A stretch of 64,000 nucleotides of DNA. Source: Bacillota bacterium (GTDB taxonomy: Bacteria; Bacillota; Negativicutes; JBAXTZ01). The position numbers and the translations under genes were made by a program. Below the pieces are notes generated by a model that was given only the letters and a program-made list of their open reading frames with translations, made no database searches and was not told where the DNA came from. Shown here piece after piece: positions 29,382 through 30,536 of this stretch. The DNA lies in the NCBI GenBank assembly GCA_037129925.1, contig JBAXTZ010000004.1, positions 21,444 to 85,443 on the forward strand, in the 5' to 3' direction. Position 1 is the stretch's first letter. The number at the start of each line of letters is the position of its first letter.

Positions 29382-30536
29382 TCAGCATTGCTGAGAGTTT
29401 TTTGTATCCGACGGAAACGTCAACAATAATTCGCGATAATACTCATATTGCTGCTTGCGCAACTCGATTTCACGCGGCAAGCCTTCGCTGATTGAGTTTG
29501 TCAATGCTTCGAATTTATCTAAGATGGCGACGATGCGAGTTTGTTCGGCGAGTGGGGGGATGGGGATTTGAAGTTTGCGCAAATTTTCGTTGTAAAGACG
29601 TTGAATTGTCCCGCCCTCAGCAACTCCCCATTTTGCAATTTGGTAAAAGTAAAACAAATATTTATTCAATACAAGGCGTTCATCATTTTCAACCCAAACT
29701 ATATTGCTATCTTGAAAATAAGAATCTCTCCCATCAAAAATAACAGTTCTCCCAATTGTACCACTCGCTGAAATCAAAATTTCGCCAAGTTTTGGGTAAT
29801 TGTATTTGGCTTTGAATTCTTCAAATAATTTTCGCGAAATATAAGCATCAGGTATTTTGCCAAATGTTCCTATTTTATAAAATGGAATTTCACCCTCAGA
29901 TAAAGTTTGTTCTTTTAAAATTCGCTTGCACATTCGAACGTTGCCAACTTCCCCCAACGCCTTCCACTCGACTTGCCCTTGTTCGAAGGTCAGCAGCTGG
30001 TCACGATAGTAGGTGTATTGTTTTTTCCGCGCTGTAAGCTCCGCTGTAAGCTCTGCTGTAAGCTCTGTGAAGCTGTCTAGCATACGAACAATTTCAGCTT
30101 GGACGGCGAGTGGAGGGAGCGGGATAACAAAGCCAATCAATTCTTTTCTATTTAATGCAGGAACACCCGTCATATTTGCAAGCTCAATTATTTTGATCGT
30201 GTTTTTTGACATAATATGGTACAGAAAACGAGTTAAGAGATTATCACTTGTGCTTCTAATTCGATAACAAAGTGGACCGCACCAAAATTTATTGTTTTGA
30301 TACCCAACATACCCAATGCCACCCTGTCCGCGGGATGGTGTTGTAATGGTATTAGATTCAGTGTTGTACTCAGACAAATAGCCTGATGGTGACGTGCCAG
30401 CATTTACAAATGAATACTCACCTAATTCATTACTATTAGGCGCTTGCCCAACTCCAACACTGCAAACTTCCCCCAGCGTCTTCCACTCCACCGGCGCGCC
30501 ATTGAGCAGCTTCTCCAAATAGCTTTGATTAATCAT
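29382..30536 (-). CDS. hsdS: Type I restriction-modification specificity subunit
   Basis: 384 aa. Two target-recognition domains separated by a conserved central helix that carries TAEL repeats. Confidence 0.9.
   Translation of the reverse strand: MINQSYLEKLLNGAPVEWKTLGEVCSVGVGQAPNSNELGEYSFVNAGTSPSGYLSEYNTESNTITTPSRGQGGIGYVGYQNNKFWCGPLCYRIRSTSDNLLTRFLYHIMSKNTIKIIELANMTGVPALNRKELIGFVIPLPPLAVQAEIVRMLDSFTELTAELTAELTARKKQYTYYRDQLLTFEQGQVEWKALGEVGNVRMCKRILKEQTLSEGEIPFYKIGTFGKIPDAYISRKLFEEFKAKYNYPKLGEILISASGTIGRTVIFDGRDSYFQDSNIVWVENDERLVLNKYLFYFYQIAKWGVAEGGTIQRLYNENLRKLQIPIPPLAEQTRIVAILDKFEALTNSISEGLPREIELRKQQYEYYRELLLTFPSDTKNSQQC
30031..30066. repeat. 3 x 12-bp tandem repeat (gctgtaagctcy) encoding (ELTA)3 in the HsdS central spacer helix
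   Basis: Three adjacent 12-mers with one wobble difference. They translate on the minus strand to ELTAELTAELTA. Confidence 0.9.

Follow-up and report, generated by a model that had tools for sequence, protein, structure and literature searches.

The ruler mechanism of the TAEL repeat in type I specificity subunits dates from the late 1980s and has been textbook knowledge since 1989. Both conserved regions of HsdS form an antiparallel coiled coil that spaces the target recognition domains (TRDs), and two versus three copies of TAEL give an N6 versus an N7 spacer, with each unit adding 0.34 nm and 36° (PMC3874165). The two-TAEL form is assigned to EcoR124I, which recognises GAA N6 RTCG; EcoDXXI and EcoPrrI possess three TAEL units and an N7 spacer, the three-TAEL state has been called an apparent optimum, and repeat number is known to change by unequal crossing-over (PMC3874165). 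In NgoAV, the number of LEAT units differs among closely related gonococci, and nanopore sequencing distinguished N6 from N7 in isogenic strains (bioRxiv 10.64898/2026.01.10.698759; PMC6789123), while gonococcal alleles with 0 or 1 LEAT are invariant (bioRxiv 10.64898/2026.01.10.698759). A spacer change of 1 bp per unit is documented for EcoR124I/EcoR124II and EcoDXXI hybrids (PMC3874165) as well as for NgoAV (bioRxiv 10.64898/2026.01.10.698759).

The hsdS gene described here lies in a 64-kb stretch of DNA (the window) from an uncultured Bacillota, and possesses a 12-bp tandem array that encodes ELTA three times. With a probability of roughly 85%, this array acts as the 'molecular ruler' in an HsdS of type IC (EcoR124 family), in its short state and with a predicted N6-class spacing.

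The operon and its specificity subunit

The repeat-bearing gene is embedded in a restriction-modification (R-M) operon with the gene order hsdM–yhcG-like–hsdS–hsdR, in which hsdM, hsdS and hsdR are all complete:

31837 to 33399, minus strand: hsdM, type I N6-adenine methyltransferase (Pfam N6_Mtase, E=7e-119, and HsdM_N; TIGR00497, E=1.5e-194)
30529 to 31578, minus strand: gene for a YhcG/DUF1016-type PD-(D/E)xK nuclease (Pfam PF17761 and PF06250; PADLOC PDC-S02, E=8.7e-163)
29382 to 30536, minus strand: hsdS, type I specificity subunit of 384 aa with two TRDs (open reading frame, Pfam, phmmer and PADLOC)
26241 to 29360, minus strand: hsdR, type IC restriction/translocase subunit of 1039 aa (Pfam; TIGR00348, E=5.4e-202)

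HsdR carries the EcoR124_C domain (Pfam PF12008, E=4.3e-69, residues 729-1032) in addition to T1R_D3-like, SWI2_SNF2 and HSDR_N domains, and matches the PADLOC REase_I model at 1487 bits. Since all three subunits are complete and HsdR possesses EcoR124_C, the locus qualifies as a type IC R-M operon, intact and with a single additional gene inserted. The true start of hsdM is likely to be the ATG at 33375, and a 512-aa form of HsdM is already on record.

The inserted YhcG-like gene, which falls in the PADLOC phage-defence candidate class PDC-S02, separates hsdM from hsdS; its 3' end and the start of hsdS share 8 bp, an arrangement that suggests translational coupling. A gene of this type is found directly upstream of hsdS in 2 of 80 related loci, with 75% and 50% identity (L019:1238-2272 and L012:1910-2992). 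The G+C content falls to 0.41-0.44 in the operon (window positions 26001-32000) versus 0.46-0.48 in its flanks, where ClC/cation-antiporter genes and treB/treC are located; the lower value fits a horizontally acquired island between housekeeping genes.

Membership of this family was originally defined by genetic complementation or cross-reacting antibodies; here, several sequence comparisons place HsdS in the EcoR124 family. The protein matches Methylase_S in two stretches (Pfam PF01420, E=1.4e-56) and the PADLOC Specificity_I model (E=1.2e-118), and a phmmer search of the PDB returned EcoR124 HsdS (7bst_A) at E=4e-50, with the next-best HsdS structures reaching only ~1e-11. Together with the EcoR124_C domain of HsdR, these matches bear out the original prediction of an HsdS and assign it to the EcoR124 family. 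The protein is organized as follows:

30117 to 30497, minus strand: TRD1, approximately residues 14-140, an uncommon variant whose best full-length relatives are 55-66% identical
29994 to 30110, minus strand: central conserved region, residues 143-181, one continuous alpha-helix with a 13-aa linker from LDSF to RKKQY
29556 to 29969, minus strand: TRD2, approximately residues 190-327, a widely shared type, delimited from invariant alignment columns and a genome scan
29424 to 29552, minus strand: C-terminal conserved region, residues 329-371, with AlphaFold2 helices at 329-347 and 352-371, broken at EGLP

AlphaFold2, run on an alignment of 36 sequences, gave a model (mean pLDDT 87.2, pTM 0.70) in which residues 143-181 form one uninterrupted helix with the repeat at its middle. 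This location, together with the homology to the TAEL repeat that is described below, agrees with the earlier placement of the repeat in the HsdS central helix. The C-terminal linker, from LDKF to RKQQY, measures 17 aa, which is 4 aa above the central linker, and a regular-expression survey recovered the same 17 aa in every homologue inspected, the window included. The central helix is therefore one unit below its partner. In the model, the central helix would provide the first arm, and the C-terminal region the second arm, of an antiparallel coiled coil between the TRDs, which matches the established picture.

TRD2, which is marked by the motifs MCKRILKxQ, GEIPFYKIGTFG and LISASGTIG, has 322 relatives in references sampled at one genome per species, spread across many phyla that include Proteobacteria, Bacteroidota, Bacillota, Spirochaetota, Cyanobacteriota and Patescibacteria. 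Over the TRD2 and C-terminal segment that these relatives have in common with the window, identity is ~76-81%, and by this comparison TRD2 is unusually widespread and conserved as a TRD type.

The array and its length state

Tandem Repeats Finder detects a single 12-bp tandem array at 30031-30067, with 3.1 copies, 96% matches, a score of 67 and the plus-strand unit GCTGTAAGCTCT. The three near-perfect 12-bp repeats that had been predicted at 30031-30066 are thus confirmed, with coordinates correct to within 1-2 bases. By score, the array ranks second among approximately eight tandem arrays in the whole window. The best is a perfect 21-bp × 2.1 repeat at 21970-22013 (score 88), and an 11-bp × 3.6 repeat at 36652-36691 lies ~65 bp upstream of an open reading frame that starts at 36756.

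On the coding strand, the ELTA array reads GAGCTTACAGCA / GAGCTTACAGCG / GAGCTTACAGCG (30030-30065), and the sole difference among the three units is one A/G that is synonymous. These units encode E-L-T-A three times, at HsdS residues 158-169, in the protein context LDSF-T-ELTAELTAELTA-RKKQY. From the unit sequences and the Tandem Repeats Finder result, the feature is delimited as:

30030 to 30068, minus strand: 12-bp tandem array of three full units plus the ACA codon (T157) just before them, which keeps the period

By simple arithmetic, three near-identical tandem 12-mers would be expected ~64,000 × 4^-24 times in 64 kb, and their occurrence is far beyond chance. The exact periodic span of the array is only 25 bp, whereas that of most family members is longer and reaches 50 bp. 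Slippage rates should therefore be modest, as the array is both shorter and less perfect than most of its relatives.

The length state of the repeat follows from its alignment with EcoR124I. The window linker TELTAELTAELTA and the EcoR124I linker TALTAELTAELNM are 13 aa each and align without gaps, as do the complete central regions, LDSFTELTAELTAELTARKKQY in the window and LDKFTALTAELTAELNMRKKQY in EcoR124I, in an alignment that covers EcoR124I residues 152-208. The 7bst chain (404 aa) reads LDKF-TALTAELTAELNM-RKKQY, and is thus the two-TAEL form. Only three substitutions separate the two linkers, A→E, N→T and M→A, and each of these simply extends the 4-residue periodicity.

The number of units that is counted within the 13 residues depends on the frame in which they are read. 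The window linker holds three units in the ELTA frame, while in the TAEL frame the same residues hold two full units and partial ones at both ends. Given the gap-free alignment to EcoR124I, the "three ELTA" of the window therefore equal the "two TAEL" of the literature. The original prediction of an EcoR124-type repeat in three copies thus stands as to the homology of the repeat, but not as to the count, which corresponds to two TAEL and to the short state rather than to the three-copy form of EcoR124II. It is close to certain that the window HsdS possesses the type IC ruler repeat in a 13-aa state, and by linker alignment the protein is in the EcoR124I-like short state, not in the 17-aa, three-TAEL state of EcoR124II, EcoDXXI and EcoPrrI. 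This dependence on the chosen frame calls for caution in annotation, and the spacer class is better predicted from the length of the LDxF-RKKQY linker (13 versus 17 aa) than from a count of units.

Because the linker length equals that of EcoR124I, the enzyme probably recognises a bipartite sequence whose spacer is of the shorter, N6 class, an assignment derived here from helix length, while TRD geometry also contributes. In the proposed mechanism, the ELTA×3 helix and the C-terminal helix would form an antiparallel coiled coil that fixes how far apart the TRDs lie and how they are twisted relative to each other, and hence how long the non-specific spacer is. If unequal crossing-over or replication slippage added one 12-bp unit, a 17-aa, EcoR124II-like N7 state would result, while loss of one unit would produce a rare 9-aa state. 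By homology with EcoR124I/EcoR124II, the EcoDXXI hybrids and NgoAV, it is very likely that the spacer would lengthen by 1 bp per gained unit. The suggestion that a change in repeat number alters the spacer relies on an established route (PMC3874165). Should unit number vary in this population, the organism would possess a built-in means of shifting between two specificities of restriction and methylation, with no need to take up new DNA, and phage resistance and gene flow in the community would be affected.

A different kind of switch, in which a frameshifting repeat turns hsdS expression on and off, has also been considered, as simple-sequence repeats in hsdS or hsdM do so in other type I systems (PMC7383803). 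However, the 12-bp unit is a multiple of three, and the reading frame is kept upon gain or loss of a unit. In addition, there is no homopolymer of at least 7-8 bases, nor any other simple-sequence repeat of at least four copies, anywhere in the operon, and the window's single hsdS is without inverted copies. On/off phase variation by frameshift is effectively refuted by the unit length, and its probability is negligible. Inversion among several hsdS genes, as in a shufflon, was likewise rejected, as neither a second hsdS nor an inverted hsdS copy is present in the 64-kb window.

Copy number in this organism and across the family

The YhcG-like protein is found in identical form on four independent contigs, only two of which span the array. 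The Logan contig L001 (SRR12676973) is 100% identical to the window, and L002 (GCA_964573965.1) is 99.97% identical overall, with an identical hsdS portion; both have the same three units. The three-unit allele is therefore identical in 3 of 3 assemblies, from at least two samples. Contig L004 stops short of the array, and the sole contig found via HsdM ends before hsdS.

The fourth contig, L003 (ENA ERZ27300065, k141_938186), carries two SNPs relative to the window and seems to depart from it within the array. This divergence is confined to the very end of the contig (L003:1700-1710), which reads CTGTCTCTTATA, the opening bases of the Nextera transposase adapter. L003 was accordingly rejected as a variant allele, its divergent tail being adapter read-through; untrimmed adapter in a public metagenome assembly here mimics a divergent hsdS allele.

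These contigs also bear on whether short-read metagenome assembly could have collapsed the array or otherwise given the window a wrong number of units. Such an artefact might be suspected, given that the window sequence comes from a metagenome-assembled genome (MAG) and that L003 appears divergent inside the array. Yet the array, at 36-39 bp, is shorter than a read, its sequence is identical in L001 and L002, which come from different pipelines, and the divergence of L003 reflects the adapter instead of an alternative allele. The identity of the array in L001 and L002 shows that it is not an assembly artefact, an explanation that is thus very improbable.

Searches for other alleles of this gene were negative. 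Synthetic HsdS proteins with 1, 2, 4 or 5 units were absent by exact look-up from a 15-billion-protein collection, in which HsdR, with either start codon, also had no record. Such look-ups are insensitive: the real three-unit, 384-aa HsdS was also reported absent, even though L001 carries a called gene for it. As this genuine protein was missed, negative exact look-ups are unreliable and bear little weight. JGI metagenome contigs yielded 0 matches to a DNA pattern made of the flanks of this allele and a variable gap that allows for 2-4 units. The original prediction had described the array as a hotspot for copy-number change, a proposal that invariance across deep sequencing and related strains would contradict; three assemblies fixed at three units are weak evidence in that direction and too shallow for refutation. 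Whether this organism's populations contain detectable copy-number variants is doubtful.

Across the family, the linker length is clearly labile. Among the 120 best homologues from a 5.8-billion-cluster database, the modal central linker is 13 aa, with 17 aa in three proteins (P0002, P0036 and P0097) and 9 aa in two (P0042 and P0102). Two pairs of these homologues differ by a single unit. P0065 (397 aa) and P0097 (401 aa) align with 0 mismatches and one 4-aa gap, and the same is true of P0102 (393 aa, from E. coli) and P0051 (397 aa); both pairs look like recent gain or loss of a unit. Other homologues in the survey, including P0003-P0018, P0080 and P0101, several of them named Streptococcus, are ~200 aa longer (575-623 aa), and two GLP-type conserved regions (e.g. 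EKICSDLNIGLPAEIEA) replace the ELTA-type central helix. These are probably the 'extended' three-TRD HsdS proteins of Atack et al.

A scan of reference genomes, taken at one genome per species, gave a near-even split. From the 322 relatives that share TRD2, the best 80 loci were kept, and in the 47 with a recognisable central region the linker is 13 aa in 26, 17 aa in 20 and 5 aa in 1. The window's own species was not recovered in this one-genome-per-species scan, where the best match had 57-59% identity. When linker states were mapped onto a neighbour-joining tree of the TRD2 and C-terminal segment common to these loci, 15 Fitch changes were needed, versus 16.3±1.7 for shuffled states, so that linker state lacks phylogenetic signal on this tree. 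This missing signal could arise from recombination in the conserved central region, not from slippage.

The DNA of the arrays is informative as well. Arrays with two or more ELTA units number 36, and in 24 of these all units of the genome are identical in DNA, while from one genome to another the unit takes nine different synonymous forms. Homogeneity within genomes combined with codon differences between them is the signature of concerted evolution via continual unit turnover. One locus, L035 (a Sulfurovum sp. MAG, JALWTA010000015.1), has two ELTA arrays, of 3 and 4 units, which implies that two hsdS genes or fragments lie adjacent in different ruler states.

An alternative is that the repeat is static in this organism, with the ELTA periodicity representing a conserved coiled-coil sequence that is effectively fixed and switches too rarely to matter biologically; specificity diversity in the family would then come chiefly from horizontal transfer and from recombination of TRDs or of the central region. 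The identical three-unit allele in three assemblies from at least two samples is in keeping with such fixation, as are the failure of the (insensitive) exact protein look-up and of the JGI pattern scan to find variants, and the array itself, which has only three units with one mismatch and an exact span below that of most relatives. The TRDs of the family are also clearly shuffled, half-length matches having 76-80% identity versus 55-66% for full-length ones, and invariant alleles do exist in gonococci with 0 or 1 LEAT (bioRxiv 10.64898/2026.01.10.698759). Conversely, proteins that are identical but for one 4-aa unit are best explained by recent gain or loss, and fit recombination with a divergent allele less well. 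The homogeneity of units within genomes, alongside synonymous differences between them, implies continuing turnover, and arrays of only 2-3 units do switch in EcoR124I/EcoR124II (PMC3874165) and NgoAV (bioRxiv 10.64898/2026.01.10.698759). A static repeat is thus possible but comparatively unlikely. The hotspot claim of the original prediction is upheld at the level of the family, by the length states, the one-unit pairs and the array homogeneity, but not by the window allele, which is invariant in three assemblies.

A broader proposal is that the ELTA/TAEL ruler acts as a general, fast-toggling, two-state switch (13 or 17 aa, N6- or N7-class) across type IC systems in many phyla, the present uncultured Negativicutes-like lineage among them, and is not peculiar to EcoR124 and NgoAV. 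The 26:20 split between the two states, the missing phylogenetic signal, and the DNA homogeneity of the arrays despite codon differences between lineages all point in this direction, though the proposal is a tentative one and is less likely to be right than wrong. If it were true, a minority of cells in the population would carry four units, or perhaps two, and these cells would differ from the rest in methylome and in phage restriction.

Comparison with described ruler systems

The reading of the array as the ruler repeat of a short-state type IC HsdS adds a host lineage and a TRD pair to a mechanism that was already known, and that was recently described at population scale in gonococci; only the lineage and the TRD pair are novel here. 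The family statistics, comprising two dominant states, the absence of phylogenetic signal and concerted evolution, extend this knowledge modestly, without introducing a new principle.

The closest described systems are EcoR124I and EcoR124II, from the E. coli plasmid R124. These share with the window the same 4-aa, 12-bp in-frame unit, and EcoR124I in addition has the 13-aa linker length; the EcoR124_C domain of HsdR is present in both. The C-terminal conserved region of EcoR124 is also nearly identical to that of the window (LDKF..LTNSI[ST]EGLPREIELR.KQYEYYR). However, both TRDs of the window differ from those of EcoR124I/EcoR124II, and the half-sites are therefore different. At the DNA level, the window array comprises 3.1 units, whereas EcoR124I is described with two. 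Furthermore, the window system possesses a YhcG-like gene between hsdM and hsdS, unlike EcoR124I/EcoR124II, and it is chromosomal, in the MAG of an uncultured, Negativicutes-like Bacillota, while EcoR124 resides on an enterobacterial plasmid. Finally, unlike in the EcoR124I/EcoR124II pair, an N7 (four-ELTA) counterpart was not observed among the three assemblies.

NgoAV, the type IC system of Neisseria gonorrhoeae, likewise has its repeat in the HsdS central helix, where the number of LEAT units sets an N6 or N7 spacer, and LEAT, TAEL and ELTA are circular permutations of one another. The two systems differ in that NgoAV also possesses a poly-G tract, through which HsdS is shortened to a dimerising form with a single TRD, whereas the window hsdS has no homopolymer tract, and in that population variation is documented for NgoAV, while the window allele is represented by three concordant assemblies.

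EcoDXXI and EcoPrrI belong to the same family and share the repeat, but are in the 17-aa state, in contrast to the 13-aa state of the window. The hsd operon of EcoPrrI carries an embedded extra defence gene, prrC. The YhcG-like insertion is reminiscent of prrC within this type IC operon, although the embedded gene encodes a PD-(D/E)xK protein of the YhcG/PDC-S02 type in the window and an anticodon nuclease in EcoPrrI.
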